Shown in pieces: positions 9,895 to 64,000 of a stretch of DNA of 64,000 nt. The translations under genes were made by a program, and so were the position numbers. Position 1 is the first letter of the stretch. Each line of letters starts with the position of its first letter. This DNA comes from a virus (lineage: Duplodnaviria; Caudoviricetes): the IMG/VR virus record IMGVR_UViG_3300005577_000027, positions 67,452 through 131,451 of that record. One strand, given 5' to 3'. Below the pieces are notes generated by a model, which ran no database searches, was not told the origin of the DNA, and saw only the letters and a list, made by a program, of their open reading frames with translations.

Positions 9895-10386
9895 TTACAT
9901 TTCTGCAAGTTCGACTAGATTATTATAATATTCTTCTGGACTATCTTTTTCCCAAAAACCACCAGAATCATTTAATTTTTCAATTCCAGCACAAGCTACA
10001 ATTTTGTCGTACATAGATATTTTATTCCAAGATCCTGGTGATTTGGATATTAAAAATATACTATATCCTAAACCATCTGTCAAATCTAATTTTATTCCAT
10101 AGAGAGGAAAATTATCCATTTTAAATAATGCAATATAGCTTATTTCATCTGCGTAATTCAAAGATGCAGCTGAAACATGTAATTTTGATTCTGAAATTTT
10201 CATTGAAGCAGAATAAATTGGATGTTTTTTAACTATATTTTCTTCATATTCTATTTTTATATTATAATTTGTTTTATATTTTTCTTTATATATTCCTATG
10301 GTATCATATATAATATTTTGTCCAAATCCAAAACTATATAAAATATATTGAACTAATTCTGTTGTTAATTGTTTTTGGATATTCAT
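9895..10386 (-). CDS. Hypothetical protein
   Basis: 163-aa ORF in operon. Confidence 0.55.
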   Translation of the reverse strand: MNIQKQLTTELVQYILYSFGFGQNIIYDTIGIYKEKYKTNYNIKIEYEENIVKKHPIYSASMKISESKLHVSAASLNYADEISYIALFKMDNFPLYGIKLDLTDGLGYSIFLISKSPGSWNKISMYDKIVACAGIEKLNDSGGFWEKDSPEEYYNNLVELAEM

Positions 10387-10673
10387 GCTAATATTCCGTG
10401 CACTTTATTATCATAAACTAAAGCATAAATTTGATAGTCTATTACTAATATATTTTCTTTTTTAAGAAGTTTTAACAAAAAAATAATTCTAGATTTTAAT
10501 GAATTATAATCATTATCTAATCCTTCATAATAATTATCAATTTGATTTAAATTTCTAATAAAACCATATTCTTTACATGTTTTAGTTAAAAAATCATATC
10601 TATTATCATTTTCATCAATGTTTTCTATGCTAATTTTTGATGTAAATTTAATTGGTTTATTCATTTTTATTTA

Positions 10674-11903
10674 TTAATTATTTATTTGTGGTTTTAAATC
10701 TTTTAATGACGGGTCAACTTTTTCACATAAAGATAATATTGTATCTAAAGATCCAGAAGAAATTTTACCATTTTGTTGTCGACCTAAGGCAAATTGATGA
10801 ATATTTTCTATTTTTTTACGTTTTAAAGCATACATAGCTGCTGGCCAAAGTTTAAATTCAGCATACCCAGCAAATTCTTTCATATTTTCTACATCTTTAA
10901 TTTCATTAAAATCAATTTCAGTTTGAGTAAAAACTTTTTGAATTGCAGGTTTTAGTCTAATTAATCTATCAGAAATTATTGGAGGCATCATTCCAATTAA
11001 ATCATCATCTTTACCTAATAAAATAGCTTCAATACAACCTCTAACAGAAGTTGAAAGACTATCTCGCATTTTATTAAATAAAGAATAAGCTATACTTTTA
11101 ATTTTTATTCTATTAAAATTCTTATCTACAACTACAACACCCTCCTTTTCTTCAGGCTTCCAAGAATTTACAGTATTAATAGTTTCATTTATATCTTTAA
11201 ATGAAAATACTTCAGAAGTTTTTAACCCATATAATTCAGTTTTATCATTTAACCAAATTTCAGGATTTTGTTCCTGAAATGATTCGTTATCTCTTACTCC
11301 CAATAATGTTAAATTTAAACCATAGTAATTACATACAATTCTATTTAATGGACTTGTTAATTCAAACATAAATGTATATTTTTTAGCATCTTCACCAAAA
11401 CAACTCATTAAATCTTGAATATTTTTCTTTCCCGAAGGATTAATATTATATGTTTTATAATATTGATTTATATACATTTCAGTTACAGTATGATCAAATA
11501 GCATTGAAAATGTCAACATTCCACCATCAATACCTACATCGGCTTCAGGTTTTGACCTAGTGCCCATGTACCAACAATCTTTATAATTATAAATTATACA
11601 GAGTGTTCCGTCAATTTTATTATAAATTTTTGCCGAATTCCAATCAAAATCTTTAGGAATTAGGGATTCTTCGGCTAGATTAAAAAATCTTTTGAACGGA
11701 AACGCTACAATGTTATAAGTATTTTCTTCTAAAATTAAACCTCTGCATTCACAAGCTAATGGATCTGATGGCCTTGATTCAATTTGATCATAGGATAATC
11801 CAATTTTTCCATTGGTTATATTTGAATATACTCCATGTTCAATGATAAGATCATTTAAAGTTTTACCTGAACGTAGATAATCTTGAACTAGTAAAGTTTT
11901 CAT
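10674..11903 (-). CDS. T4 Rnl1-like RNA ligase
   Basis: ECRGLILE, PFKRFFN, motif I KIDGT, FELTSPLNRIV, EGVVV, RIKIKS. Confidence 0.9.
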   Translation of the reverse strand: MKTLLVQDYLRSGKTLNDLIIEHGVYSNITNGKIGLSYDQIESRPSDPLACECRGLILEENTYNIVAFPFKRFFNLAEESLIPKDFDWNSAKIYNKIDGTLCIIYNYKDCWYMGTRSKPEADVGIDGGMLTFSMLFDHTVTEMYINQYYKTYNINPSGKKNIQDLMSCFGEDAKKYTFMFELTSPLNRIVCNYYGLNLTLLGVRDNESFQEQNPEIWLNDKTELYGLKTSEVFSFKDINETINTVNSWKPEEKEGVVVVDKNFNRIKIKSIAYSLFNKMRDSLSTSVRGCIEAILLGKDDDLIGMMPPIISDRLIRLKPAIQKVFTQTEIDFNEIKDVENMKEFAGYAEFKLWPAAMYALKRKKIENIHQFALGRQQNGKISSGSLDTILSLCEKVDPSLKDLKPQINN

Positions 11904-12153
11904 TTAAATTATACCTTTTCCTAATATTTTAGAAATATTCGTTAGATCGTTTGGTTTTGGGATATCTTTTATTTGTTCTTCAATATAATCTTCAAATTTA
12001 AAATTATCACCTGCGGATCTGCGGTTCATTAATTCTTCCATACACTTAATGCTAAGATCTTTATAAATATTTAATAATTTATAAGTTACAACGTATCCGG
12101 CTAAAATTTTCGATGAAGCTTTTTTAATTTCTTCATCTTGATTATTATTTAAT

Positions 12154-12480
12154 TCATTCTTCTGATTGAACATATTTTAACCAATTTTTCATTTTTTTAA
12201 AAGGTTTTATTAAAGGCATTATTTTTTTCTTGCTTGTTCCGTTTTTTGGACACTGAATATATAATTTACCTATATCTTGAATATATACAATATTTCCATT
12301 TAACATTTCATTTCTTATTAATTGAAAATATTCTTTAACTATAGCCTCACAAGTTGTATAAGATAATCCTGTATGAACAATAATTTTATATACCAGATCT
12401 TCTAAACCTTTTGCGGTTACAGGTTTGTTATCATTGATCTGTTCTAAATATTCGTTTATTCCGGGAAGTAATTTGGGCAT
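12154..12480 (-). CDS. Second HU/IHF-like protein
   Basis: TGLSYTTCEAIV ... GNIVYIQDIGKL ... IKPFKKMK. Confidence 0.55.
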   Translation of the reverse strand: MPKLLPGINEYLEQINDNKPVTAKGLEDLVYKIIVHTGLSYTTCEAIVKEYFQLIRNEMLNGNIVYIQDIGKLYIQCPKNGTSKKKIMPLIKPFKKMKNWLKYVQSEE

Positions 12481-12639
12481 TTATTTTATTTAATCAAAGA
12501 TCGTTTTAAATCAGTTTTAAAACGTTTTCAGATTCAGGATGACTAGTTCTTCATTTGAGTTCTATTATTTACATAAACTTTAATTATGAGTCTGGATATT
12601 AATAATCTAATAGAATTTGATCAACTGTGTTTTGTATTT

Positions 12640-12920
12640 TCAAAATTCTGCTAGATCTTGGATTCGCAAAACTCATCCAAGATCTGGATTTTAGATTATA
12701 ATTATTTAATATAACTTGATTTTATTAATTTTAATATTAGTGTTTTAAAATTTAATTTAAATATTCAAAAACTGCTATATATTAGTATTCGTAAACTCAT
12801 ACTAATATATGGTTTTATTTTACATATTAGATCTTTAATATATTAATATACTAGATCTAGTATATAAGATCTTACGCGCGCGGGAGCGTACACAGGAGCG
12901 CAGGCGGGAGCGCGCGCGAA
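12640..12920. other. Structured non-coding region, candidate replication origin
   Basis: Two related hairpins, palindrome ATATACTAGATCTAGTATAT, repeated AGATCT and a GC island CGCGCGCG..GGAGCG x3..CGCGCGCG within AT-rich DNA between divergent genes. Confidence 0.4.
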
Positions 12921-13163
12921 TAATTGTAATTTTTTTCTTTCTCGATTTTTTGATTTTTACATTTAAATATTAAAATTTATATATAATAAAATATTATTTA
13001 TCATCAATTCGAGATCTAAGTTTAGCATTTTATATGATAAATGTCAAGCCGCTTTTACTATTTAATTGATTCTGGGCCTACTCAGATATATTATTAAAGC
13101 AGCAATGGCAATTAAAAATTAAGCCGTTCCTGCTTTTTGTTTTAAAAGGAACTGGTACTTACA

Positions 13164-14036
13164 ATGAATATTATAATTGAACGTGGACGAGTTTGGGAAT
13201 TAAATGAGCTACCGAGTTATTCTATTGCAATTGATGGAGCAGTTTCTGGACCACAAATTGATGCTGAAAATAATAAATTTTCCTTTGATCATCATGCCGG
13301 ATGTTTACGATATTGCACACTTGCTGCATGTGAGCAAGCGCGCGTAGCAGTTTTACTTGGTTTAGATCCTAGTAAATTTACATTTTATTTAAATGATTGT
13401 GATATCGATGTAGCTATGACTGTTTGGATTCTTCAAAATCCAGATAGAGTAAAGGAACCATTAGTAATTAAATTAATTAATGCTATAGGCGTTGCTGATG
13501 CTCATGCAGGAGCTATATGCATAAACGGTATGACAAAAACGGTAGAATGGGTTAGTGCGGTAGAAATTGACTTTAAATCCGATAAGTCTAATTATGAAAA
13601 AATATCTAATGGTAATTTAAAATACATTCTTGAAGCTACCTTGCGAAGAATTGATCAATATGTTGACGGAGAAGCTGGTTTAGAAATAGCTAAACAAGAA
13701 ATTAATTCAGAATATAAAATATTAAGAAATCAAAATGATTATGTTGTAGTTCAATCAGATAATCCGCACATTTATTCTACACTTTATGCTGCTGGATTCA
13801 ATAAAATTGTACTAGTTAGACCGTTAGAAAATGATAGTTTAGCAGTTTCTTTGGCAAAAAAGAGCGATTTTGTTAGTAATTTTAACTTAATTAAAATGTA
13901 TGAAAAATTAAATGAATTAGAAGAAGGTTGGGGTGGTTCTAGTAGTATTGGCGGTAGTCCAAGGCATTTAGATGGTACAAGAAGTAAATTATCCTTAGAA
14001 AAAATAATAGAAGTAATAGATTCGGTTATAGAATAG
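13164..14036 (+). CDS. DHH-superfamily phosphoesterase-like protein
   Basis: AIDG, FDHH, DCDID, WGGS ... GGSPR motifs. Confidence 0.55.
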   Translation: MNIIIERGRVWELNELPSYSIAIDGAVSGPQIDAENNKFSFDHHAGCLRYCTLAACEQARVAVLLGLDPSKFTFYLNDCDIDVAMTVWILQNPDRVKEPLVIKLINAIGVADAHAGAICINGMTKTVEWVSAVEIDFKSDKSNYEKISNGNLKYILEATLRRIDQYVDGEAGLEIAKQEINSEYKILRNQNDYVVVQSDNPHIYSTLYAAGFNKIVLVRPLENDSLAVSLAKKSDFVSNFNLIKMYEKLNELEEGWGGSSSIGGSPRHLDGTRSKLSLEKIIEVIDSVIE

Positions 14037-45554: not shown

Positions 45555-47123
45555 TTAATTTATAATTTGAAATATTAACCATTCTTCATCAGAATTAATA
45601 TCTGGATAATAAATATTATCTAACCAATATTCTTTTTCTCCGTCTTCACCTTCTATCGCAGGACCATCTGTCCTATGACATTTACCATTTTGATACCACC
45701 ACTTTTCTCCATCAGTAAATTCTAATGCAGGACCATCTAGCCTATGATATTTACCATTTTGAAACCAAAATTTATCTCCATTATTATATATTCTAGCAGG
45801 TCCATCTTCTTTATGTAAAAAATTATTATCTTTCCTACGCCATTCTATTTTATCTTCAGATATTTTTTTATAAATTAAATTATTATCTTTTTGAATAAAA
45901 ACTTTCAAATATTTAATTATTTTTTTATACATTTTATTATTTTAATTTATAATTTGAAATATAATCCACTCTTCGTCAGTTTTAATATTTGAATAATATC
46001 TACCATTTAACCAATATTCTTTTCCTCCATTTTCATATTCTACAGCAGGACCATCTGTTCTATGACATAATCCATTTTGATACCACAATTTAGTTCCATC
46101 ATGAAGTTCAACTGCTGAACCACCTATTCTATGATATTTACCATTTTGAAACCAAAATTTATTTCCATTATAGAATTCTATAGCAGGCCCGTCTTCTCTA
46201 TGAAAAGTATGTGTATCTTCTTTATACCAACGGGTAGTTCCACATACATCTTTTTCAGAATATACTTTAGTCATATTAATTTATAATTTGAAATATAATC
46301 CATTCTTCATTAGTTTTTATATTTGAATAATGTTTATTATTTAACCAATATTCTTTATCTCCGTCTTCATATTCTAAAGCCGGACCTTCTGTCCTATGAA
46401 GTTTTCCATTAATAATCCACCATTTACTTCCATTAAAATGATTTATAGCTGGACCATCTATTCTATGTAATTCTCCATTTTGATACCAAACTTTATCACC
46501 ATTTAAGTATTCTACAGCTGGACCATCATCTCTGTGGAGAAGATATGTGCCTTCTTTATACCAACGAATATTTCCATATTCATCCATTTTAGAATATACT
46601 TTTGTCATATTAATTTATAATTTGAAATATTACCCACTCCTCGTTAGTTTTAATATTTGGATAACATTCATCATTTAAATAATAATATTTATTTCCATTT
46701 TCATATTCTATAGCAGGACCATCTTCCCTATGACGTTGACCGTTTTGATACCAAAATTTATTACCAACAATATCTTCTACTGCAGGGCCATCTACTCTAT
46801 GACATAATCCATTTTGATACCATTCTTTAGTTCCAGAATCCCATTCTACTGCAGGTCCATCTTCTTTATGCCAAAGATCAGTATCTTTTCTACACCACAC
46901 TGTTCGTCCGGGAAATCTTGTTTTATATAGCTCAGTCATATTAATTAACTATTTGAAATATTAACCACTCTTCATCAGTTCTAATATCTATATACCATTT
47001 ACCATTTAACCAATATTCCTTATGTCTATCAAAACGTTCTACTGCCGGACCATCCGTTCCGTGAAGTAAGTCATTTTTAAAATAAAATTTATCACCCCAA
47101 GTATTTTTTACCACGTGAATCAT
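45555..47123 (-). repeat. Cluster 3 of HREDGPA paralogs (45555..45932, 45942..46274, 46276..46608, 46610..46939, 46941..47123)
   Basis: Five tandem ORFs, mostly TAA-N-ATG junctions, same tail. Confidence 0.9.
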
Positions 47124-50731: not shown

Positions 50732-50793
50732 TTAAGTATTCTTTCGTTCTTCAATTTAAATATAAGTCTTAACTAGTATAATGTCAACTATTT

Positions 50794-52178
50794 TTAATTT
50801 ATAATTTGAAATATAATCCACTCTTCATCAGCTTTAATATTCGGGTAACGTTTATCATACAACCAATATTCTTTATCACCATTCCAATACTCTACAGCCG
50901 GACCATCTACTCTATGCAATTCCCCGTTTTGATACCAATGTTTAGTTCCATTATTCCATTCTATTGCAGGACCATCTTCTCTATGACGAACATCAGTTTC
51001 TTCTTTATACCAGGAAATATGACCTCCAGATATTTTTTTATATATATTATCCATATTAATTAATTATCTGAAATATTAACCATTTTTCATCACTATTTAT
51101 ATTTTCATAATATTTATTATTTAACCAATATTCTTTATATTTATCATAATATGCTATAGCTGGCCCATCAGTTCTATGAATTTTACCATTTTGATACCAA
51201 AATTTAGTTCCATCAGTATATTCTACAGCTGGGCCGTCGTCTCTATGAAGAATTTCAGTCTCTTTTTTATACTAATGAATGGTTTCATATTTATCCTTTT
51301 TTGAAAAAACTTTCGTCATTTTAATTAATTATTTGAAATATAATCCATTCTTCATTAGTTTTTATATTTGGATAACGTTTATTATTTAACCAATATTCTT
51401 TTCTTCCGTCTTCATACTCTATAGCTGGACCATCCGTTCGATGAAGCTCACCATTTTGGTGCCATTCTTTAGCTCCACTGTCATGTTCTATAGCAGGACC
51501 ATCTGCTCTATGGCATAATCCATTTTGATACCAACATTTACTTCCATTAGAATATTCTACAGCTGGACCATTTATTCCATGAAGAATATATGTTCCTTCT
51601 TTATACCAACAAATATTTCCATGTTCATCTATTTGAGAATAAACTTTAGTCATTTTAATTTATTATTTGAAATATTAACCATTCTTCATCATTTTTTATA
51701 TTTCTATACGCCTTATTATATAACCAATATTCTTTTTCACCATTCCAATATTCTACAGCTGGACCATCTATTCTATGTAATTTTCCGTTTTGATACCAAT
51801 ATTTGGTTCCATGATTCCACTCTATAGCTGGACCATCTTCTCTATGAAGAATATCTGTACCTTCTTGGTACCAAGCAATATGATTCATACATATTTTTTT
51901 TATATATATTATTCATATTAATTAATTATCTGAAATATTAACCATTCTTTATCAGTTTTAATATCTGGGTATGATTTATCATTTAACCAATATTCTTTTC
52001 CACGCATATATTCTACGGCAGGACCATCAATTCTATGGCGTCTTCCATTTTGAAACCAAAATTTACTTCCATCAATATATTCTACTGCTGGACCATCATC
52101 TTTATGAAGAATATATGTACCTTCTTTGTACCAATAAGTAGTTCCATATTCATCTGTTATAAAATATACTTTAATCAT
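50794..52178 (-). repeat. Cluster 4 of HREDGPA paralogs (50794..51054, 51056..51319, 51321..51653, 51655..51916, 51918..52178)
   Basis: Five tandem members; one has an internal TAG, one a frameshift in an A8 run near 51894-51901. Confidence 0.9.
51056..51319 (-). pseudogene. HREDGPA paralog interrupted by in-frame TAG
   Basis: MTKVFSKKDKYETIH-TAG(51272-51274)[15 protein letters not shown] ... [10 protein letters not shown]. Confidence 0.85.
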
Positions 52179-52205: not shown

Positions 52206-53192
52206 TTAAGAACTATATGCTATCTGAAATCGTACATTAGAAAATTGATTACAATTCAAAATTGCATCACCTTTACCCATTAAATGTTCAGCTCCACTTT
52301 GATCAATAATTACCTTTGAATCAATAACCGAACTAACTTTACAAGCAACTCTAGCAGGAAAATTAGCTTTAATTAATCCCGTTAAAACATCAACGCTAGG
52401 TCTTTGGGTAGCTAATACCATATGACAACCTACAGCCCTACTCTTCTGAGAGATTTTAATTAAAAGCTCCTCAAACTGTCCGTTATCATCTTGTAACATT
52501 AAATCAGATACTTCATCAATAATTACCATAATTTTAGGCACAACAAAAGGACTTTCATTTAAACTTTTAATACCTAATATTCTAAATAAATTATATCGTT
52601 CTTCAATTTCTTCAGCTAATAATTTCAACATTTTAATAACACCATTATAATTATATACAATGGAATTACAATCTCTTACATATTTTCCAAACTCTACTCC
52701 ATTTTTAGGATCAACCAAATAAAGCATTACATCATTACGCTTTTTAATGTTTGCAATTAATGTATGAAGAAATACACTTTTACCAGAACCTGTAGTACCA
52801 GCAACCAACATATGAGGATTAGTTGCCATATCCAACCATATAGGTTCTCCAGTAGCCTGCTCTCCCAATAAAAATGTTAATAATCCATCAGGTCTACTAT
52901 TAATGCTTCGCTCATATAATTCATCAAAATTTATCATATCAGCAGTTCTGGTAGCTACCTGAAGCCTAACTATTCCACTACCGGAAATAGTAGTAACAAT
53001 GGGAATTGTCAAACTCCGTAAAGCTAAACCAATTTCACGAGCATTAGCTTCAATCTTTTTAATAGATTGCCCAGGATCTAGTTCAATATCATATAATTTA
53101 TAATGACGATGCTCTTTAACATCTTTACAATGTCCGCGAATTTTAAATGATTTTAGAATCGAATCAATCACATTTTTATCATAAGTATTCAT
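52206..53192 (-). CDS. FtsK/SpoIIIE-family ATPase
   Basis: PHMLVAGTTGSGKS, VDPK, IIDEVSDL, LATQRPS, GAEHLMGKGD. Confidence 0.92.
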   Translation of the reverse strand: MNTYDKNVIDSILKSFKIRGHCKDVKEHRHYKLYDIELDPGQSIKKIEANAREIGLALRSLTIPIVTTISGSGIVRLQVATRTADMINFDELYERSINSRPDGLLTFLLGEQATGEPIWLDMATNPHMLVAGTTGSGKSVFLHTLIANIKKRNDVMLYLVDPKNGVEFGKYVRDCNSIVYNYNGVIKMLKLLAEEIEERYNLFRILGIKSLNESPFVVPKIMVIIDEVSDLMLQDDNGQFEELLIKISQKSRAVGCHMVLATQRPSVDVLTGLIKANFPARVACKVSSVIDSKVIIDQSGAEHLMGKGDAILNCNQFSNVRFQIAYSS

Positions 53193-53257: not shown

Positions 53258-54184
53258 TTATATATTTATATTCATTAATTGTGTTCCTAATTTTTTGAGA
53301 AAATTAGAACCGTATGTATTATTTTCTAAATCATTTTCCATAAATTGCGGTAATATTTCATCTTGATACCTAGAAGAAGCAATTCCCCAAGCTATAGAAG
53401 CTACTGAATCTGTATCTCCTCCCCAATTAATAATTCTTTTCATCATGCCTATTAAGCTATTTTCTTCAATTAATAAAGTATTGACAGCATGAGCAGTATT
53501 TATTCCTATTCCTAAATTTTTTGGATCATTTTTATTTTTATGAACAATTCCATTCCAAGGCAATAAAAAATTATATTTAAATAAATTCCAATCAATAAAT
53601 AATTTATAATCACTTATCCATTCATTTAAATATTTAAAAGAATCATTTTTATATAAAGAAAAGTGGCTCATTAATCCGACTAATATGGATGATTGAATCG
53701 CATTATTTGTATTATGAGTTGTAGCCGCTTGAATTTTAGCTATATTAATTATATCTAATGGATTTTTAATAATCCCTAATGGCACAGATCTCATAGCGGC
53801 TCCATTACTATTTGAATCTGTATTAATTAATTTCTTTAATTCATTTACCGAATTAGCTTTTTCCAGAATGCTTTGAAAATTTCTAGAATACCCATCTCTT
53901 TCGTCTCGTTTAAAACAAGATAAAAATGAATACAAAAAATCATCAGAATTAACGTTTGTTCCTTTATTTATTAAAACTTCAGAAATTGCTATAGATTGCT
54001 GAGTATCATCTGTATAATAACCAGGAAGTAATTTATTATACTTAGGATGTTGTAAATATGACTTAAAATTTAATGCTTCAATAAACAAATCTTGATATTT
54101 TAATTGATCAATATATTCTACACAAATAGCATATGCATCAGCTTGAGCAATTCGTAAAAGAATATTATTGTTTTTATTTATCAT
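53258..54184 (-). CDS. ADP-ribosylglycohydrolase (DraG/ARH family)
   Basis: YTDDTQ, SNGAAMR, TTH, GGDTDS. Confidence 0.9.
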   Translation of the reverse strand: MINKNNNILLRIAQADAYAICVEYIDQLKYQDLFIEALNFKSYLQHPKYNKLLPGYYTDDTQQSIAISEVLINKGTNVNSDDFLYSFLSCFKRDERDGYSRNFQSILEKANSVNELKKLINTDSNSNGAAMRSVPLGIIKNPLDIINIAKIQAATTHNTNNAIQSSILVGLMSHFSLYKNDSFKYLNEWISDYKLFIDWNLFKYNFLLPWNGIVHKNKNDPKNLGIGINTAHAVNTLLIEENSLIGMMKRIINWGGDTDSVASIAWGIASSRYQDEILPQFMENDLENNTYGSNFLKKLGTQLMNINI

Positions 54185-54803: not shown

Positions 54804-55979
54804 TTAATTCACTATTTGAAATATTAACCATTCTTCATCAGTTTGAATATCTGGATAATCTTTTCCATTTAAAAAATAACTTTTATATTCATTTGGGGAT
54901 TCCATTGCTGGACCATCAACTCTATGGCATAATCCATTTTGATACCAACATTTATCACCATTAGAAAATTCTATTGCTGGACCATTTTTTCTATGAAGCA
55001 ATCCATATTGATACCAATATTTATTACCATTAAAATATTCTACAGCAGCGCCATCTTCTCTATGAAGAATAGTTGTACCTTCTTTATACCAAAAAATATT
55101 TCCGTATTTATCTGTTTTTGAATAAACTTTTGTCATATTAATTTAATATTTGAAATATAATCCACTCTTCGTCAGAGTGAATATTTGAATATTCATTTCC
55201 ATACAACCAATATTGCTTATAACTATTCTTCATTTCTAAAGCTGGACCATCTGTCCTATGAAACTGTCCATTAATAACCCACCATCTACTTCCATTAGGA
55301 TATTCTATTGCTGGACCATCTACTCTGTGAATTTTCCCATTTTGGTACCATCGCTTTTCTCCATCAGCATATTCTACAGCCGGACCATCTTCTCTATGTA
55401 AAATATCTGTACCTTCTTTATACCAATAAATATTACAATACTCTATTTTTGAATATATTTTTGTCATTAATTTAATATTTGGAATATAACCCATTCTTCA
55501 TCAGTTTTAATATCTGGATAATGTTTCCCATATAAATAATATGCTTTACGACCATCAATGCATTCTATAGCAGGACCATCTGTTCTGTGGCGTCTTCCAT
55601 TTTGATACCACCATTTTGTTCCATCATACCATTCTATTGCCGGACCATCTTCTCTATGGTAGATCAAATATCCTTCATTATCATTTTCTTTATACCATTC
55701 AATGCGATTTTCAAATTCTTTGCTGTATATTTTAATCATTTTTCAATTAATTATTTGAAATATTAACCACTCTTCATCATTTTTTATATCTGAATAATGA
55801 ATATTGTTTAACCAATATTCGTTTTTATAAAAAAATCTTTCATCATGATATTTTATCGCCGGGCCACTTACATTATGTAAACCACAATATGTAGAATAAT
55901 AAGCAGTAAAAATACCACAATCACTTGTATAATAATTTCTATTATAATTATTCGGTTTCATTTTGATTTTATATTTCAT
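54804..55979 (-). repeat. Cluster 5 of HREDGPA paralogs (54804..55136, 55138..55467, 55467..55739, 55743..55979)
   Basis: Four tandem members with EEW(L/I/V)IFQI(I/L/V)N. Confidence 0.9.
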
Positions 55980-56358: not shown

Positions 56359-57051
56359 TTATAAATTATTTAATTGATTTCCAATTTGTAATTCTTGTGA
56401 AATTTCTACCAGTCTATTTTTAATTTGAGGATTAATACTTTCTAATAAAGGTAGAATTTCTTTTCTAACTTTAACTCTTAAATAATCCATATTCTCATTT
56501 GACGGATCATTTGCATATAAAATATTCCACCGCTTTAAATGTGCTAAAATTCTGTTTTTAGGTACAGAGAGTAATGGCCTGAAAATTCCAATACCATTAT
56601 TAGACACTTCTGGCAAAACATTTAATGAGCCAATATTTTTACCACGCAAAAGTCTGATCATAACAGTCTCTGCATAATCGTCAAAATGATGTGCAGTTAC
56701 TATTACATTGCCATATTCAAACAATGCATCATATCTTGCTTTCCTTGCATGTGATTGTATTCCTTCCGGACCATCAATCACTTTTACCACCTTGCGATAA
56801 AAAGGAACATTGATTTTTAAAGCAAGATTTTCTGCTAAATCAAGTTCTGAATTAGCTTCATTTCTTAGACCATGATTGATTCCTACTGCAATACAATCAT
56901 GACCCAATTCTCTTGCTACTCGAGGAAAAGATACAAGCAAACATTGTGAATCAGAACCACCAGATACTCCTAAAGTAAATTTAGTAGGAGTTTTATAGTT
57001 TCGATTAATTGATTCAGTTAATGCTTTGTGAATATTTCGTTCGAGTTTCAT
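56359..57051 (-). CDS. tilS: tRNA(Ile)-lysidine synthase
   Basis: GVSGGSDS, NHGLR, ARKARY, TAHHFDD.AET, RPLL, DPSN; adjacent tRNA-CAT. Confidence 0.92.
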   Translation of the reverse strand: MKLERNIHKALTESINRNYKTPTKFTLGVSGGSDSQCLLVSFPRVARELGHDCIAVGINHGLRNEANSELDLAENLALKINVPFYRKVVKVIDGPEGIQSHARKARYDALFEYGNVIVTAHHFDDYAETVMIRLLRGKNIGSLNVLPEVSNNGIGIFRPLLSVPKNRILAHLKRWNILYANDPSNENMDYLRVKVRKEILPLLESINPQIKNRLVEISQELQIGNQLNNL

Positions 57052-57056
57052 TTTTT

Positions 57057-57092
57057 ATCTAACTCTTATATCGGTTAGCTGATATTAATATT
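57057..57092 (-). CRISPR. Orphan CRISPR repeat upstream of tilS
   Basis: atctaactcttatatcggttagctgatatt vs array gtctaactcttatagaggttagcttctatt (25/30), stem CTAAC/GTTAG intact. Confidence 0.7.
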
Positions 57093-57118
57093 TTGCTCCA
57101 ATTTCATTTTATTAAAAA

Positions 57119-57196
57119 TGGTGGGCCGTGTAGGACTTGAACCTACAGCCTCAAAATTATGAGTTTTTTGCTCTAGACCTATTGAGCTAACGGCCC
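57119..57196 (-). tRNA. tRNA-Ile2(CAT), with encoded CCA
   Basis: GGGCCGTTAGCTCA..CTCATAA..GGTTCAAGTCC..CGGCCCACCA; beside tilS. Confidence 0.88.
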
Positions 57197-57216
57197 GTAA
57201 TGTTTGTACTATCTTT

Positions 57217-57245
57217 AGTCTAAGTTCATTAACTTATATTGTCAA
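57217..57245 (-). promoter_or_regulatory. Promoter of the tRNA-Ile2/tilS unit
   Basis: TTGACA-N17-TAGACT. Confidence 0.75.
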
Positions 57246-57314
57246 GCGTTTTTAAAATTCTTTATAAAATCTATTAATAAATCTGAATAAGTTCATAACA
57301 TCGAGAGGAATGGT

Positions 57315-58019
57315 ATGAACTTATGTGTAATATGTAATACTGAAATTGAAAATTGTCAATCAAAATTTTGTTCACAAACTTGTAAAACAAAATATTTTAA
57401 TTCAAAAAATAATAATTATTCTATACAAAAAGACCGCGGAATCAATAGAAAACTATACTTTATAAATAAAAAGGGAGGATGTTGTGAAATTTGCGGGTAT
57501 AAACAAAACATGGCTGGATTAGTTTTTCATCATATAGACCCTAGTAAAAAAAAATTTAATGTTGATGGAAGGTCCCTAGGAAATAGATCTTTAAAAGAAT
57601 TAACACTTGAGGTGGAAAAATGCCAATTATTATGTCATCTATGTCATACTCATCATCATAATCCACATTTAGACATGAGTAATTTCGATGAACATATTAT
57701 TAATATTGAATTAAAAAGTCACATATGTAAAGAATTAATCAATAAAACTGAAGAAGAAATTAATAAAATTATTGAAAGTATAAATAATACTAATTTAAAT
57801 AAAACAGCTTTATGGTTAGAAGTATCTTCTACTGCATTATCTAATTTTTTAGATAGAGAAAATTTACGTGATAGAATCAAATTTTTCCGTCAAACTAAAA
57901 TTCAATGGCCTTCAAATGAAGAATTATTGAAAATGCTTTCAGAATCTAATTACTCAGCAGTTGGACGAAAATTAGGTGTAAGTGATAATGCTATTCGCAA
58001 ACATTTAAAATCCAAGTAA
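57315..58019 (+). CDS. HNH endonuclease with N-terminal Zn finger and C-terminal HTH (homing-type)
   Basis: CEICGY, FHHIDP..K, EVEKCQLLCHLCH, VGRKLGVSDNAIRK. Confidence 0.85.
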   Translation: MNLCVICNTEIENCQSKFCSQTCKTKYFNSKNNNYSIQKDRGINRKLYFINKKGGCCEICGYKQNMAGLVFHHIDPSKKKFNVDGRSLGNRSLKELTLEVEKCQLLCHLCHTHHHNPHLDMSNFDEHIINIELKSHICKELINKTEEEINKIIESINNTNLNKTALWLEVSSTALSNFLDRENLRDRIKFFRQTKIQWPSNEELLKMLSESNYSAVGRKLGVSDNAIRKHLKSK

Positions 58020-58173
58020 ACTTTAATTTTAAGGTATAATTAAGTTATTATTACAATATCTGCTTTAAATATTATTACGGTTACCTGATATTTACAATCC
58101 GTAATCTTCGTACTGTATTTAATTACATTGTCAAGCGGCTTATTATTTAATAAACAGCATAGTGCAGAAACTG

Positions 58174-59509
58174 GTCTAATTCTTTTTAGCGATTAGCTGC
58201 TATTATTTGCTTGATCTTTCAAATATCATCATGATACCGCCGTTGTAGTCTAACATTTATAGTAGTTAGCAACTATTACTTAATATCTTGTTTCAGTGCG
58301 ATTGAACTTCTTACTGTCGTTAATTCTTATATTAGTTAGCTGATATTGTTTGTTGAAGCCAAATTTAATCATGTCGACGAGAAACGTGTCTAACTCTTAT
58401 AGAGGTTAGCTTCTATTGATGCTGTTGAAAGTGGCACTCGATCCCACCATTTAGTCTCGGGCCTAACTCTTATAGAGGTTAGTTTCTATTGCTAATATGG
58501 TGACGATGATGTCTAGTACGTGGACTATTATTTGCCTAACTCTCATAGAGGTTAGCTTCTATTACTGACGGGCCGGTGAGAAAGAATAAGATATTCGGAC
58601 GACTAATCTAACTCTCATAGAGGTTAGCTTCTATTATTGACATCGACCGCTTCGCGCGATTTGCGGTTGGAGGGCCGTCTAACTCTTATAGAGGTTAGTT
58701 TCTATTGATGCCGCTATGTGGTGGAGGATGTCTGCCATCACCATTTCGTCTAACTCTTAGAGAGGTTAGCTTCTATTGCTGACTTCGCACTATTTTTTTG
58801 ATCGGTCAGCAGCTTTACGCATTTAACTCTTATAGATGTTAGTTTCTATTGATGCCAGTCGAGAGTGGCACTCGACACCATCATTTAATCCTCACGTCTA
58901 AACTCTTATAGAGGTTAGTTTCTATTACTGACCGCCCTCAGTGACGCCAGGCCCGCCTAACTCTTATAGAGGTTAGTTTCTATTGTTGATAACGTAAGAA
59001 CCGGAGACTGCGTTGGTGACTGGCCGCAAGCCTAACTCTTATAAAGGTTAGCTTCTATTGCTGACGTTTGTTATTTTGTTAAAATTTCTGTCACAATCTG
59101 TCTAATTCTTATAGAGATTAGCTACTATTGATGATGTAATTAAATTACTGCCTAGTGTGTTTTCGCCTTTGCACTGTTCGTCATAGTCTAACTTTTATAG
59201 AAGTTAGCTTCTATTGACGCAGTCATACCTAACGTGAGCATTTCGATTCAAAGTGTCGTCTAACTCTTATAGAGGTTAGCTTCTATTGCCAACACCAAGG
59301 GGGATAAACTTGGCGCCTACTTGGATGCGGTCTAACGCTTATAGAGGTTAGCTTCTATTGCCAACCGACTTAGATCCCGCTGGAAAGTAATGGCAGAATC
59401 GGTCTAACGCTTATAGAGGTTAGCTTCTATTGCCAACAGTGGGTGCAAAAATGGCTGCCAACATCTATTACAGGTCTAACGCTTATAGAGGTTAGCTTCT
59501 ATTGCCAAC
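58174..59509 (-). CRISPR. CRISPR array: 19 repeats (36 nt) and 18 spacers (22-50 nt)
   Basis: Leader-proximal repeat GTTGGCAATAGAAGCTAACCTCTATAAGCGTTAGAC (minus strand). Repeat left ends at 59474, 59402, 59330, 59258, 59186, 59100, 59030, 58955, 58896, 58821, 58748, 58677, 58606, 58534, 58461, 58388, 58318, 58248, 58174. Confidence 0.97.
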
Positions 59510-59700
59510 GGGCGATCAAAATTACTTATATTTTCAAAGATCTACGAAGCACATTGCGAGAGGTTACGTTTACACCCCATCACGCAATGATTATAGTCAC
59601 GATTCAGGCAAACGTCAACCAAATTTAAGCTAATAATTCTGGTGACTTACGTGTTTTGCGAGCGGTTCCGGGTAATTTCACAGCACCAGACCGCTCGCCA
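59510..59700 (-). promoter_or_regulatory. CRISPR leader with promoter TTGACG-N17-TATAAT (59590..59618)
   Basis: Promoter points into the array; inverted repeats CATTGCG/CGCAATG (59552-59589) and GCGAGCGGT/ACCGCTCGC (59658-59698). Confidence 0.8.
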
Positions 59701-61721
59701 TGTCGATCAAACAAGTGAGCTGCCGCATTGTAATTAACGTTTACAGATTTATTACATTTTTTACAATGTACGTCTGATAATTCTTTTTGATTAATTAATT
59801 CTCCGCCACATTTAAAATGTTCTTTAGAAATATTTTTTGCGTTTTCTTCACAAAAATCTTTTCCAAATTTCTGCTTTAGTGCGTCAGTTAAAACACTTAC
59901 TCCAACAAATTGACGCACCGCATTAGCATTTTCTTCTTGCTTTGTACGATTATCATTTTCAACATCAGGAGTTTCGGCAGTTTTAGATTTATCCCAGTTT
60001 TCAACGATAACCTTTCCATAGGTGCTAGATAACTTCTTTGCAAAACAACGGTAAATTTCTTTTCGATGTTTTCGAAGTTTTGATTCAATACCACGGGCCC
60101 AATTAATTAAATGAATTTCTTTTTCTGCCCAAGTCTTTAAATAAAAAGCCATCTGAACATTGGGATCATCAATCGAATTATCTTTACACCACTGAATAGT
60201 ATTATCTAATGTTGTAAATAAATCATCTTTATCACTACAATTTTTCCAAGGTTTATTTTCTTTACAATGAGTTTTCCATTTTTTCCAAAGATCATACCAA
60301 GTATTATCTGGTAAAAATACTTTAGCTAATTCTTTAGAGACGAATAGAAGTTTTTTATGCGATCTCCACTGTGGCAAATTTGTGAAATATTTCGTAATAC
60401 ATTCATCTAAATTTGAATTCTTTAACCATTTTGATACATCTTTCTTAACAGAATCAAAATGTTTATCAGCATGACTAATCAATGTTTCTTTATAAACTAT
60501 ATTTGCACGCATCTTAGAAGGCAAAATTAATTCATTATAATTTTTACCATCAAAGCTAGTAGCAACGGTAATATCATCTGTTTGATCATTTACTTTCCAT
60601 CCTAAATTAATAGCAACATCATCTGGACGAATAGCTGAAGGCTGAGTAAATGAATTAGACTCAATCGTAAATTGAATATTATAAATACTACGATATCCAA
60701 TTTTAGATACAACTAAAAATACCCATTTAATTGTAGCATCTTCTGGCATTTGGCGATGCATAATAAAAGGAATATCTACAAACTTTCCAGTTTTTTCAGT
60801 GCCAAAAAGTTTAATGCGCGCTGTAGCTAAAACTTTATTTTTCTTTTTATTTTGCCGTAAATAAACTTCTGGATGTAAATCAATCTTAAGAACAGGACTT
60901 GACCCACTTAGGGCATCTTTAATTGACAGACCTTTATTTTGAGTAAGCTGCATGCCAATTTTTCCTGAACCATCAAATGATTTAAATTTTGGCTCAAATT
61001 TAGAATTTGAAAAGGATTGTTTTGCAGCCTCTTCAATACTAACATAAGTTCCACTTGAGCATTTGCAATTACTTCTTGCTCGTTTATTTGATGCTTCAGC
61101 TGATTTAGAAATTTTCGCTTTGATAGCCCAAAACCTATTTCCACCATCAATCATTTCTTTGTAGAGATTATTCACTACATTGTGACGATTAACATCATTT
61201 GGACCAAGAGAATCCTTATTTAATTCTTTAGCTTTTTGTTCTAAGCGTTCTTTCTTTAGAAGAGAAAATTTACTATCAGCTTCTTTGAAATAATCTAAAT
61301 TTAATTGAGTATGAATAGATTTAATCTTAGCACTTAAATCTTTTTTCTTTAATTTTAAATCCTTAATTTCTACAGCTTGCGGAGTTAACTGACGATTTTT
61401 TTTAGGAAATTTAGGATCTAAACTATTTTCCGCACGGCCGCCAAAACTTTTACGTAATTCAATAATTTTCTCTTCAGTGAGAAGTAGATCGTTTTCCAGC
61501 TGACGTAATTCTGGTGACATTAATTTACGAAGGTTACGGAAGCGATTTCGACGCTTTCGTTCAATTTCTACAAGTTTGTTTCGGTATTTATGCGCAAAAT
61601 ATAATTGATCATTAATTAATTTAATTTGCTCTGATTCTTTAGGAAGAAAAGCTCCATAAGAATACACTTTCGTTTCAGAGGTTGAAGTTTTACGAGCGTT
61701 GGATTTTTTAACTGGTTCCAT
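59625..61721 (-). CDS. cas12m: Type V CRISPR effector, Cas12m (V-U1)-like, RuvC predicted inactive
   Basis: VYSYG..AHKYRNKLVEIE, FDGSGKIGMQL, MHRQMPEDA.IK, RuvC-I VAINLGWK, QWRS, RKEIYR, RuvC-II IVENW, Zn finger HFKC/CKKC, RuvC-III NVNYNAA; adjacent array. Confidence 0.85.
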   Translation of the reverse strand: MEPVKKSNARKTSTSETKVYSYGAFLPKESEQIKLINDQLYFAHKYRNKLVEIERKRRNRFRNLRKLMSPELRQLENDLLLTEEKIIELRKSFGGRAENSLDPKFPKKNRQLTPQAVEIKDLKLKKKDLSAKIKSIHTQLNLDYFKEADSKFSLLKKERLEQKAKELNKDSLGPNDVNRHNVVNNLYKEMIDGGNRFWAIKAKISKSAEASNKRARSNCKCSSGTYVSIEEAAKQSFSNSKFEPKFKSFDGSGKIGMQLTQNKGLSIKDALSGSSPVLKIDLHPEVYLRQNKKKNKVLATARIKLFGTEKTGKFVDIPFIMHRQMPEDATIKWVFLVVSKIGYRSIYNIQFTIESNSFTQPSAIRPDDVAINLGWKVNDQTDDITVATSFDGKNYNELILPSKMRANIVYKETLISHADKHFDSVKKDVSKWLKNSNLDECITKYFTNLPQWRSHKKLLFVSKELAKVFLPDNTWYDLWKKWKTHCKENKPWKNCSDKDDLFTTLDNTIQWCKDNSIDDPNVQMAFYLKTWAEKEIHLINWARGIESKLRKHRKEIYRCFAKKLSSTYGKVIVENWDKSKTAETPDVENDNRTKQEENANAVRQFVGVSVLTDALKQKFGKDFCEENAKNISKEHFKCGGELINQKELSDVHCKKCNKSVNVNYNAAAHLFDRHGERSGAVKLPGTARKTRKSPELLA

Positions 61722-61771
61722 AATATTATTTATTGGTTATGTATTATATGTAAATCGTAAATGGGTATATG

Positions 61772-62326
61772 TCAAGAATTAATATTTAAATCTAATTTAG
61801 ACTTATATAAAAAATTCGTCCCTGATTCTTTAATTTTTTGAATTATAGTTTTTATAACGTTTTCATCTAATCTGCGCCATTCAGTTCCGCCATCTAAGTG
61901 ATATTTAGATGTATAGTATTTAATAGCATTTTTTAATTTTAGATTTCCATCTATTGTGTAAATTGTTTGGAAATGCTCAGGATTACCAACTTGAATATTT
62001 TTTACTCGTTTATTTGGAGCAATAGATAATCCAATTTTCCATATAGTTGGATCATTCGAATGTCTAGCAAAATAAACTTGAGTTTTTCTATTTTTAATTT
62101 TACTAATAGATTTTTTATCCAAACCTAATGGATCATATTTAATATGAATATTCAATTTACATTTTTTAATTAATTTAATATATTCTTGAAATATAAGAAA
62201 ATCATCTTCTAATTCTGGTAGATTCTTTATTTGTTTTTTACCAGAATTAGGATTAAAATTATGTTTTCGTTGAATTAATTTCAATCTATTTTCAATATAT
62301 TTAATTACATTTAATTTATCAATCAT
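61772..62326 (-). CDS. GIY-YIG/T5orf172-like domain protein
   Basis: VYFAR..WKIGLS..PNKRVKNIQVGNP..TEW. Confidence 0.75.
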   Translation of the reverse strand: MIDKLNVIKYIENRLKLIQRKHNFNPNSGKKQIKNLPELEDDFLIFQEYIKLIKKCKLNIHIKYDPLGLDKKSISKIKNRKTQVYFARHSNDPTIWKIGLSIAPNKRVKNIQVGNPEHFQTIYTIDGNLKLKNAIKYYTSKYHLDGGTEWRRLDENVIKTIIQKIKESGTNFLYKSKLDLNINS

Positions 62327-62328
62327 AA

Positions 62329-62739
62329 TTATTTCGTAATTGTTGTAATCAATTCTTTTACAGCAAAATAATCTGGAGAATTATATCTTATAATACCATT
62401 AGAGATTAAATCTATACTATCATTTAAAAGAAGCATAGAAAAAATTAAAACAATTGCACCGCAAATGGCTTGCGAAAAAACAAAATAAGAATCAGTTTTA
62501 ATAAGTTTAAGAAACATATTATAAACTAATTTTTTATAAACAAGTAATATTAGCATAATAATTACACTATATCCAATGCCTTTAATGATTTCTTGTATTG
62601 CTAACATCCGCTGATAATGGACCAAAATTTTCCAAGCATCCGGAGTAACTTTAGCAACGGAATTGGCTATATGTTCTACTCCATTGCTAATTTTGTTTAT
62701 TACATTATCAACTAAATCTAATGTTGTTTTATTATCCAT
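62329..62739 (-). CDS. Hypothetical membrane protein
   Basis: Two TM segments, C-terminal PDYFAVKE. Confidence 0.6.
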   Translation of the reverse strand: MDNKTTLDLVDNVINKISNGVEHIANSVAKVTPDAWKILVHYQRMLAIQEIIKGIGYSVIIMLILLVYKKLVYNMFLKLIKTDSYFVFSQAICGAIVLIFSMLLLNDSIDLISNGIIRYNSPDYFAVKELITTITK

Positions 62740-62884: not shown

Positions 62885-64000
62885 TTAATTTATAATTTGA
62901 AATATAATCCATTCTTCATCAGTTTTAATATTTGGGTATGGTTTATCATTTAACCAATATTCTTTATCACCATTAGGCCATATTACAGCAGGACCATCCG
63001 TTCTATGACATTTTTCACTCTGGTACCATTCTTTATGTCCAGAGTTATTTTCTATAGCTGGTCCATCAGCTCTATGCCACATATCATTTTGATACCAATG
63101 CTTAGTTCCATCAACAAATTCTATAGCTGGACCATCTTCTCTATGAAGAATATTTGTACCTTCTTTACACCAATAAATATTTCCATATTTATCTTTTTTT
63201 GAATATACTTTAGTCATTTTTAATTAATTATCTGAAATATAATCCACTCTTCATCAGTTTTAATATCTGGATAATATTTATTATTCAACCAATATTGTTT
63301 ATCTCCATTTATGTATTCTACAGCGGGACCATCTATTCTATGAATTTCTCCATTAATACACCAATGTTTATCACCATTAATCCATTCTATTGCTGGGCCA
63401 TTCTCTCTATGACATAATCCATTTTTGAACCATTGTTTTTCTCCATCATTCCACTCTAATGCTGGGCCATCTATTCTATGGTATAGATCATTTTGATACC
63501 AAAACTTACCTCCATTAGAACACTCTACAGCTGGTCCGTCTTCCCTATGAAGAATATTAGTACCTTCTTTATACCAATAAAGATTACTAAGTTCATTTGT
63601 TTTACAAACTACTTTAGTCATATTAATTTATAATTTGAAATATTAACCACTCTTCATCAGTGTTAATATCTATATACCATTTACCATTTAACCAATATTC
63701 TTTTCCTCCATTTTCATATTCTACAGCAGGGCCATCAATTCTATGACGCTTTCCATCATAGCACCACCACTTTTCTCCATCATAAAATTCTAATGCGGGC
63801 CCACTTTCTCTATGAAAGATACCATTTTGATACCAATATTTGGTTCCATTGGTACATTCTATAGCTGGACCGTCATCCCTATGACGAATATTTGTACCTT
63901 CTTTATACCAATGAATGTTATTATATTTATCTATACTAGAATAGACTTTAGTCATATTAATTTATAATTTGAAATATTAACCATTCTTCATCAGAATTAA
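62885..64000 (-). repeat. Cluster 6 of HREDGPA paralogs (62885..63217, 63220..63621, 63623..63955, partial 63957..64000)
   Basis: 3-4 repeats each plus the shared tail; runs off the window edge. Confidence 0.9.

Follow-up and report, generated by a model that had tools for sequence, protein, structure and literature searches.

The question raised by this locus is whether a huge phage would carry a CRISPR system that binds DNA without cutting it, and against which replicons such a system would be directed. The locus lies in the window, the whole stretch of 64,000 nucleotides (nt) analysed here, which forms the last 64 kb of the 131,451-bp IMG/VR virus record IMGVR_UViG_3300005577_000027, a linear record estimated by CheckV to be ~31% complete. 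With a probability of roughly 0.72, we read it as a type V-M CRISPR-Cas12m locus on a huge AT-rich phage, which would silence non-self replicons by binding without cutting. The family membership of its effector protein (698 amino acids, aa), the states of the catalytic residues, the CRISPR RNA (crRNA) scaffold, the phage context and the spacer differences between strains were observed directly. The gene, its leader and the array occupy the following positions:

59625-61721, minus strand: cas12m, the type V-M effector gene, long form, 698 aa (open reading frame, PDB phmmer, PADLOC and clade profile).
59510-59624, minus strand: leader of 115 nt with a promoter-like TTGACG-17-TATAAT at 59618 to 59590 (promoter scan, 11/12).
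58388-59509, minus strand: 16 well-formed 36-nt repeats and 15 spacers of 22-50 nt, with the three leader-proximal repeats identical.
58174-58387, minus strand: trailer end of the array, with three degenerate repeats (58318-58353, 58248-58283 and 58174-58210) and three AT-richer spacers.

An earlier note on this DNA had described a 698-aa open reading frame adjoining a promoter-driven array of 19 repeats, and the frame, the leader with its 11/12 site and the 19 repeats were all found. The array comprises 19 repeats and 18 spacers, lies downstream of cas12m on the same strand and runs from 59509 down to 58174; its 19th repeat (58174-58210) contains a 1-nt insertion, was missed by the mismatch scan and was identified by eye. 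In transcription orientation the repeat reads GTTGGCAATAGAAGCTAACCTCTATAAGCGTTAGAC (36 nt, 3' AGAC), in agreement with the length and the AGAC ending given previously. The identical repeats at the leader end and the degenerate ones at the far end correspond to the usual polarity of an array growing at its leader. The TTGACG-17-TATAAT site was the top promoter-like site of the 5.5-kb region scanned (56900-62400), where the number of such sites was overall at chance level (26 found vs 26.4 in shuffles). Nine of 11 related loci showed this arrangement, with an array just downstream of the gene.

A phmmer search of the PDB with the 698-aa protein retrieved the Cas12m chain 23vw_A (3.2e-31), Cas12m2 (8hhl/8hio, 1.9e-8) and 8pm4 (9.7e-6). 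A profile of its 33-member clade matched 23vw at 1.6e-74, 23vu (UnCas12m4a) at 9.5e-39, 8pm4 at 4.7e-38 and 8hhl at 8.8e-35; the next PDB family was 9j09, a 'Transposase', at 1.2e-4, followed by Cas12f at 0.98, and no chain of Cas12j (CasPhi) or Cas12k was present among the PDB matches of this profile at E <=1. The profile comparison that had been proposed as a check thus separates Cas12m (1.6e-74 to 8.8e-35) from Cas12j and Cas12k. PADLOC identified Cas12u1 (2e-66) and also a model named 'Cas12f' (1.5e-67), which we read as a matter of naming in that library, solved Cas12f reaching only 0.98 against the clade profile. In Pfam and NCBIfam there were only sub-threshold matches, to TNB (0.021) and to IS607 TnpB (NF038280, 15 bits against a cut-off of 350 bits). 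The ESM Atlas model of the protein had a predicted template-modelling score (pTM) of 0.60, and its nearest structural cluster was found at TM 0.69/0.84; the nearest clusters, of which the closest is a TNB-domain cluster, are labelled mostly viral, with few members carrying taxa. Judged by sequence, the 698-aa protein is firmly assigned to Cas12m (type V-M, formerly V-U1). The Cas12m-like identity suggested in the earlier note is therefore borne out by sequence, profile and crRNA scaffold, and the motifs listed there (FDGSG, HR..P.DA.I, LGW and QW.S, here QWRS) all align to Cas12m2 or 23vw.

A HMMER scan of 1.84 billion representatives yielded 2510 relatives at E <=1e-3 and 344 at <=1e-30. Relatives are rare in the phage and plasmid collections scanned, with one in 50,697 GenBank phage records, seven PLSDB plasmids and, from two pattern-limited scans of IMG/VR, nine distinct contigs besides this record; a metagenome scan gave three loci, one of them a duplicate. 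An IMG/VR contig of 371,739 bp (59% GC) represents a second huge phage; its locus at 10001-13711 comprises a 764-aa Cas12m relative of N-N-D triad and, downstream of that gene, an array in two blocks, one with 10 repeats and the other with 8.

The residues expected to define crRNA recognition and catalysis were located by alignment to solved Cas12m structures:

60753-60758, minus strand: WED pair His322-Arg323, aligned to His269/Arg270 of Cas12m2 (8hio alignment; invariant in two alignments of relatives).
60606-60608, minus strand: RuvC-I position, Asn372 replacing Asp (AINLGWK vs AIDLGWR of 23vw; codon checked).
60000-60002, minus strand: RuvC-II Glu574, kept (VIVENW vs IVLEEF of 23vw; codon checked).
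59754-59819, minus strand: TNB zinc finger H635, C638, C653 and C656 (columns invariant or nearly so; weak Pfam TNB match, 0.021).
59733-59741, minus strand: RuvC-III NVN, with Asn661 and Asn663 replacing the two Asp of DxD-x-NAA (NVNYNAA vs DQDYNAA; codons checked).

The C-terminal RuvC and zinc-finger layout noted before is therefore present (N372/E574/N663 and H635/C638/C653/C656), and both the alignment to 23vw and the codons confirm Asn at RuvC-I and RuvC-III with Glu alone left. The two substitutions differ in their distribution. RuvC-I was Asn in 12 of 14 aligned relatives, while both Asp of DxD-x-NAA were kept in 13 of the 14, the window protein being the sole exception. Over a larger set (158 proteins, reduced to 150 by exclusion of eight under 520 aa), the four RuvC columns read DEDD in 40, NEDD in 35 and NDDD in 13, and NENN was found in the window protein alone; the three-column triad N-E-N occurred in 2 of the 150. 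In a FastTree phylogeny of these 150 proteins, the window protein was sister to P0002 (NED, 48% identical, support 0.995), and both fell within a long-form clade (55-59 proteins, 521-876 aa) in which 28-29 have an NED triad. The 19-member subclade that includes the window protein is rich in decayed triads (GEK, VKY, VLN, ILD, KND and NNN). Nine relatives on virus or metagenome contigs had RuvC-I Asn in five cases and Asp in four, and kept the RuvC-III Asp in eight, with L011 ambiguous.

As judged from these alignments, the RuvC-I Asn is the commonest state in the clade, so that most of the 'dead' appearance of the protein is a trait of its family; the added RuvC-III loss is rare but fits a clade in which the active site drifts. 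The published Cas12m triads are HEK, HQK, HDD, DED, NED and DND; NEN is not among these and is absent from the published triad lists, as far as their available text extends.

The available parts of three reports (PMC11013384, PMC10442227, 10.64898/2026.03.26.714355) describe Cas12m proteins with DED, HDD and NDD triads that bind double-stranded DNA (dsDNA) with a flanking protospacer adjacent motif (PAM) without cutting it. According to the same portions of text, cutting was not regained when Cas12m2 was restored to DED, and Cas12m processing of pre-crRNA is independent of RuvC and survives RuvC mutation. Since published Cas12m proteins bind without cutting, a non-cutting binder would be expected here as well, and the window protein is most likely a DNA binder and silencer without cleavage activity. 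The binder and silencer role put forward in the earlier note would thus follow by analogy with the assays on DED, HDD and NDD proteins.

A second line of evidence comes from the repeats. Columns 1-6 of the repeat are variable and the rest are conserved over 18 copies, which can form a two-stem pseudoknot pairing positions 8-12 with 21-25 and 15-19 with 30-34. This structure was 93.3% paired over the 18 copies, compared with 23-40% when the partners were slid, and compensatory changes were found at three pairs, with a covariation score reached by 0 of 500 shuffles. In minus numbering, -22 to -18 pair with -7 to -3, followed by A(-2) and C(-1). The window and eight relatives, 9 of 9 loci, all contain a perfect 5-bp complement of the -7 to -3 arm, beginning at -22 to -25; its letters differ from locus to locus, and the chance expectation is 3-15% per locus. 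The published Cas12m2 scaffold, in the available text of PMC10442227, has a disordered -36 to -30 segment, a pseudoknot between -22 to -17 and -8 to -3, and a G(-23):A(-2) pair; its last base, C(-1), is read by His269/Arg270. The window repeat accordingly carries the Cas12m crRNA pseudoknot at the published positions.

No anti-repeat resembling a trans-activating crRNA (tracrRNA) was detected, in that no plus-strand match to the 29-nt repeat core was found at <=8 mismatches across 131 kb, a threshold that a more diverged copy would escape; this result fits the tracrRNA-free Cas12m family. An exact IMG/VR scan for the repeat core gave zero matches, so no second phage with the same repeat was seen there.

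The carrier is a phage. An identical 698-aa protein is also on record on a 390,274-bp contig, indicating that the element hosting the locus is a huge phage (~390 kb), and the phage is huge, AT-rich and from soil or rhizosphere. Phage genes in the record include RIIA (5.3e-80), an RNA ligase, a DNA ligase, HNH endonucleases and an FtsK-like ATPase; base composition is uniform at 28% GC (28.3% as the comparator for spacers) and stop-codon usage is ordinary. With a GC content of 0.316 and a third-position GC content (GC3) of 0.186, cas12m is fully adapted to phage composition, whereas the related loci that could be read are all 57-69% GC. The absence of cas1, cas2 and cas4 from the window, stated in the earlier note, was extended to the full 131,451-bp record (~31% of the genome), in which no Pfam match to Cas1, Cas2 or Cas4 was found; V-U1 loci are typically without adaptation genes, according to the available text of PMC11013384.

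Comparison with close strains suggested that the array may be in use. In run X2, a soil metagenome from a different study, a relative's cas12m differs at 75 of 1777 positions, and of 24 listed differences 15 are synonymous and nine mostly conservative. Contigs from X2 and X3 contain repeat-spacer-repeat units with spacers absent from the window, and one X2 contig fuses 58636 to 59161, skipping seven units. Array parts without coverage in X2 (e.g. 58932-59092) were excluded as evidence, run X1 may be the source sample, and run X3, guessed to be RNA, gave thin scattered cover that is uninformative on expression; none of the sequencing runs listed as containing the locus was marked as RNA. Spacer content thus varies between close strains, which fits a living, updated array.

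The spacers themselves point outside the phage. The 15 spacers between well-formed repeats have a mean GC content of 48.9% vs 28.3% for the phage, a host-like composition, and the target would therefore be the host chromosome or elements adapted to the host. In keeping with a higher-GC host, a PP-loop gene resembling TilS (56359-57051, minus strand; PF01171, 1.3e-40) has a tRNA gene with anticodon CAT (57119-57196, minus strand) directly upstream of it, and ATA makes up 27% of the Ile codons of the phage. These look like a phage-borne tRNA-Ile2/lysidine synthetase pair, reading ATA in a GC-richer host, and they fit a host far less AT-rich than the phage. One site is represented by two variant spacers that are 82% alike (58857-58896 and 58424-58460); read by eye in one frame, they differ largely at third positions, suggesting a protein-coding target that varies among strains.

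Searches for protospacers were negative in their respective scopes. The whole array had no blastn match in GenBank phages, PLSDB plasmids or complete E. coli genomes. Exact scans of IMG/VR gave zero matches both for a degenerate core of the related spacer pair and for parts of spacers 1, 2, 3 and 4; this core and a part of spacer 3 were likewise without matches in the 185,579 species genomes of GTDB, as was part of spacer 2 in the JGI metagenome contigs; these exact scans took in at most 5 of the 18 spacers, and targets may still exist in those collections. Spacers gave chance-level short matches only against their own 131-kb record. Self-regulation through spacers matching the phage was rejected on this ground for the 131-kb part of the genome.

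From the above, the targets would be non-self replicons of ~49% GC, among which co-resident mobile elements (temperate phages, plasmids) are weakly favoured over host genes, given how spacers turn over and that two of them are variants of one site. We propose that the leader promoter would drive a minus-strand pre-crRNA in which every 36-nt repeat would fold as the Cas12m pseudoknot scaffold. Cas12m would take up this scaffold and trim the transcript by its RuvC-independent activity, and the complex would locate PAM-flanked double-stranded DNA with ~17-20 nt of spacer. With an N-E-N triad it would not cut but stay on the DNA, blocking transcription or replication, and the array would be kept current within the phage population. 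What we infer in this scheme is that the complex binds but does not cut, that it thereby silences, and what kind of target it has.

Several points weigh against the proposed scheme. No protospacer was found in any collection scanned, and hence neither a PAM nor a target class, and the preference for mobile elements over host genes draws solely on strain spacer turnover and two variant spacers. Contigs of the runs are short, with breaks at repeats, and the count of synonymous changes covers 24 of the 127 differences in the cas12m region. The record covers ~31% of the genome, and the remainder could hold adaptation genes, self-targets or further arrays. In addition, E574 is retained and might still allow some residual binding of metal.

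The same binder could instead serve host takeover, with spacers against the host chromosome (e.g. gene starts) acting as a natural CRISPR interference (CRISPRi) on a GC-richer host. This is an unlikely but serious alternative: the spacer GC of 0.489 resembles the host and not the phage, the tRNA(CAT), the TilS-like enzyme and the ATA usage fit a higher-GC host, and huge-phage arrays with host-targeting spacers have been reported (PMC7162821). A loose ribosome-site-plus-start pattern was found in the reverse complements of 4 of the 15 spacers and in the forward orientation of 1 of the 15, a weak count that is not significant. A scan of 185,579 species genomes with two patterns gave no match, however, the array had no match in E. 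coli genomes, and strain-to-strain spacer differences are less expected of a fixed takeover programme. A version in which the CRISPRi would be adaptive seems to us more doubtful still; here, a Cas12m stripped of its last RuvC aspartates would be guided by the 18-spacer array, which would be renewed between strains and directed at the 5' ends of genes in the host, and repeat-like elements outside the array, such as that preceding the TilS-like gene, would be extra sites for Cas12m binding or processing on phage transcripts.

It is very improbable that the locus is a decaying relic, inherited from a plasmid or bacterium and now unused, with the loss of the RuvC-III Asp as part of the decay. The degenerate trailer repeats, the repeated triad decay in the 19-member subclade and the failure to find a target would be consistent with this, but the 698-aa frame is intact with a GC3 matched to the phage (0.186), the His-Arg and zinc-finger residues are invariant, the 24 listed strain differences are mostly synonymous, the leader-end repeats are identical, and strains differ in their spacers. 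A TnpB of transposon type, or a fixed repressor like TldR, with unrelated repeats, to which the weak matches to a Cas12f1-like TNB domain (0.021) and IS607 TnpB (15 bits) might point, is hardly credible given that those 15 bits are far under the 350-bit cut-off, that the gap between Cas12m and any PDB TnpB is ~30 orders of magnitude, that the triad is NEN and not DED, and that an array is present, placed alike in 9 of 11 relatives and with a repeat scaffold that co-varies with the protein family across loci.

Compared with known systems, the type V-M assignment places the locus closest to characterized Cas12m proteins. The window protein resembles Cas12m2 of Mycolicibacterium mucogenicum (8HHL/8HIO) over the WED, RuvC and TNB regions, and the two systems share a 36-nt repeat, a pseudoknot at the same positions, the terminal AC, the His-Arg pair and a non-canonical triad, with no tracrRNA-like anti-repeat found in the 131-kb record. 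They differ in that Cas12m2 has 596 aa, an H-D-D triad and a bacterial origin, while the window protein has 698 aa, with extra segments at ~185-239 and ~472-524 (relative to 23vw), an N-E-N triad and a phage genome as carrier. The best solved match, 23vw_A ('CRISPR-associated DNA-binding protein Cas12m', 577 aa), aligns in three stretches that span most of the protein, and has D, E and D where the window protein has N, E and N. PmCas12m (NDD) and, from Bigelyte et al., an N-D-D Cas12m, as described in the available text, have the same RuvC-I Asn and bind dsDNA without cutting, but they keep the RuvC-III Asp that is Asn in the window protein.

Among phage systems, a close parallel is MvCas12m; a September 2026 preprint describes it, together with its array, from the complete genome of a myxophage and calls it the first Cas12m in a phage (bioRxiv 10.64898/2026.09.14.751636). 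It is likewise phage-encoded and adjacent to its array; it has no cas1, cas2, cas4 or tracrRNA, none of which was detected in the 131-kb record here, and no protospacers were found for it, nor for the window array in the collections scanned; it differs in having 610 aa, a DED triad and 8 spacers, vs 698 aa, NEN and 18 spacers on a ~390-kb AT-rich phage. CasPhi (Cas12j), too, is one compact type V effector (~700-750 aa) encoded beside an array on huge phages, and its loci are without adaptation genes (PMC7162821), of which none were detected in the 131-kb record here; unlike the window protein, CasPhi is an active nuclease that processes its crRNA in RuvC, according to the available text. In 2020, V-U variants were described from huge phages, with arrays mostly without adaptation genes and a median of six repeats, and it was suggested that nuclease-less phage systems may repress transcription and that some spacers target hosts (PMC7162821). 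Viral effectors from landfill also group with Cas12m/V-U1 (PMC12607003). Table S1 of PMC11013384, which from the part available lists 134 Cas12m variants and derives from a search that included IMG/VR, and the supplements of PMC7162821 may already contain the window protein or close viral relatives.

Outside the array there is a further repeat-like sequence:

57057-57092, minus strand: solitary repeat-like element with 4/29 mismatches to the repeat core, between the tRNA(CAT), labelled tRNA-Met, and the ATG of the TilS-like gene.

This was the sole repeat match outside the array in 131 kb, and compensatory changes preserve its two stems; it falls within 56 nt that one contig of run X2 leaves out. 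The element may belong to the CRISPR system. A contig of run X1 contains another repeat-like stretch (~58249-58281) in a different AT-rich setting. The Rfam search returned two tRNAs only.

The genes surrounding the locus encode diverse functions. Immediately upstream of cas12m, a gene at 61772-62326 (minus strand) encodes a protein with a T5orf172/MUG113 domain (1.9e-5), a family that we take to be GIY-YIG-related, and is followed by a gene for a PHROG 1486 membrane protein. Just beyond the trailer end of the array is an HNH endonuclease gene (57315-58019, plus strand; PHROG 3106, 2.3e-18), in a region (57255-58156) flanked by 21-nt direct repeats that are 86% alike (57228-57248 and 58117-58137). 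One low-depth contig of run X4 fuses 57254 to 58157 and lacks the HNH segment, which, from the flanking repeats and this junction, looks like a mobile homing cassette. An ADP-ribosylglycohydrolase gene (53258-54184, minus strand; 9.4e-24) adjoins a gene for an FtsK/SpoIIIE-like ATPase (52206-53192, minus strand; PHROG 1358, 9.7e-74). Small tandem paralogues of 78-133 aa are numerous (45555-46939, 50792-52134, 54804-55979 and 62885-63955, minus strand); they share a repeated W-Y-x-N-G-x-x-H-R-x-D-G-P-A unit and end in DEEW-I-FQI-N, and the copy tested had no match in Pfam or PHROGs.

Earlier publications already cover DNA binding without cutting, the missing adaptation genes, Cas12m occurring on plasmids, in prophages and in a phage, and the idea that a phage CRISPR system might silence without cleaving. 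What this locus adds are its particulars, namely a long-form Cas12m with an N-E-N triad, a 19-repeat array that is unusually long for a phage (vs the median of six; PMC7162821), a very AT-rich huge phage as carrier and spacers of host-like composition. The long-form clade (521-876 aa) has no solved member among the PDB matches (577-614 aa), and as a tool the protein would be one more compact natural nuclease-dead Cas (dCas), possibly with other PAM, temperature or composition preferences. Cas12m, a naturally nuclease-dead RNA-guided binder, would thereby be extended to a huge phage of lytic type. If its targets were identified, the locus would tell competitor exclusion from host control by a binding-only phage CRISPR system, a question that dates from 2020.

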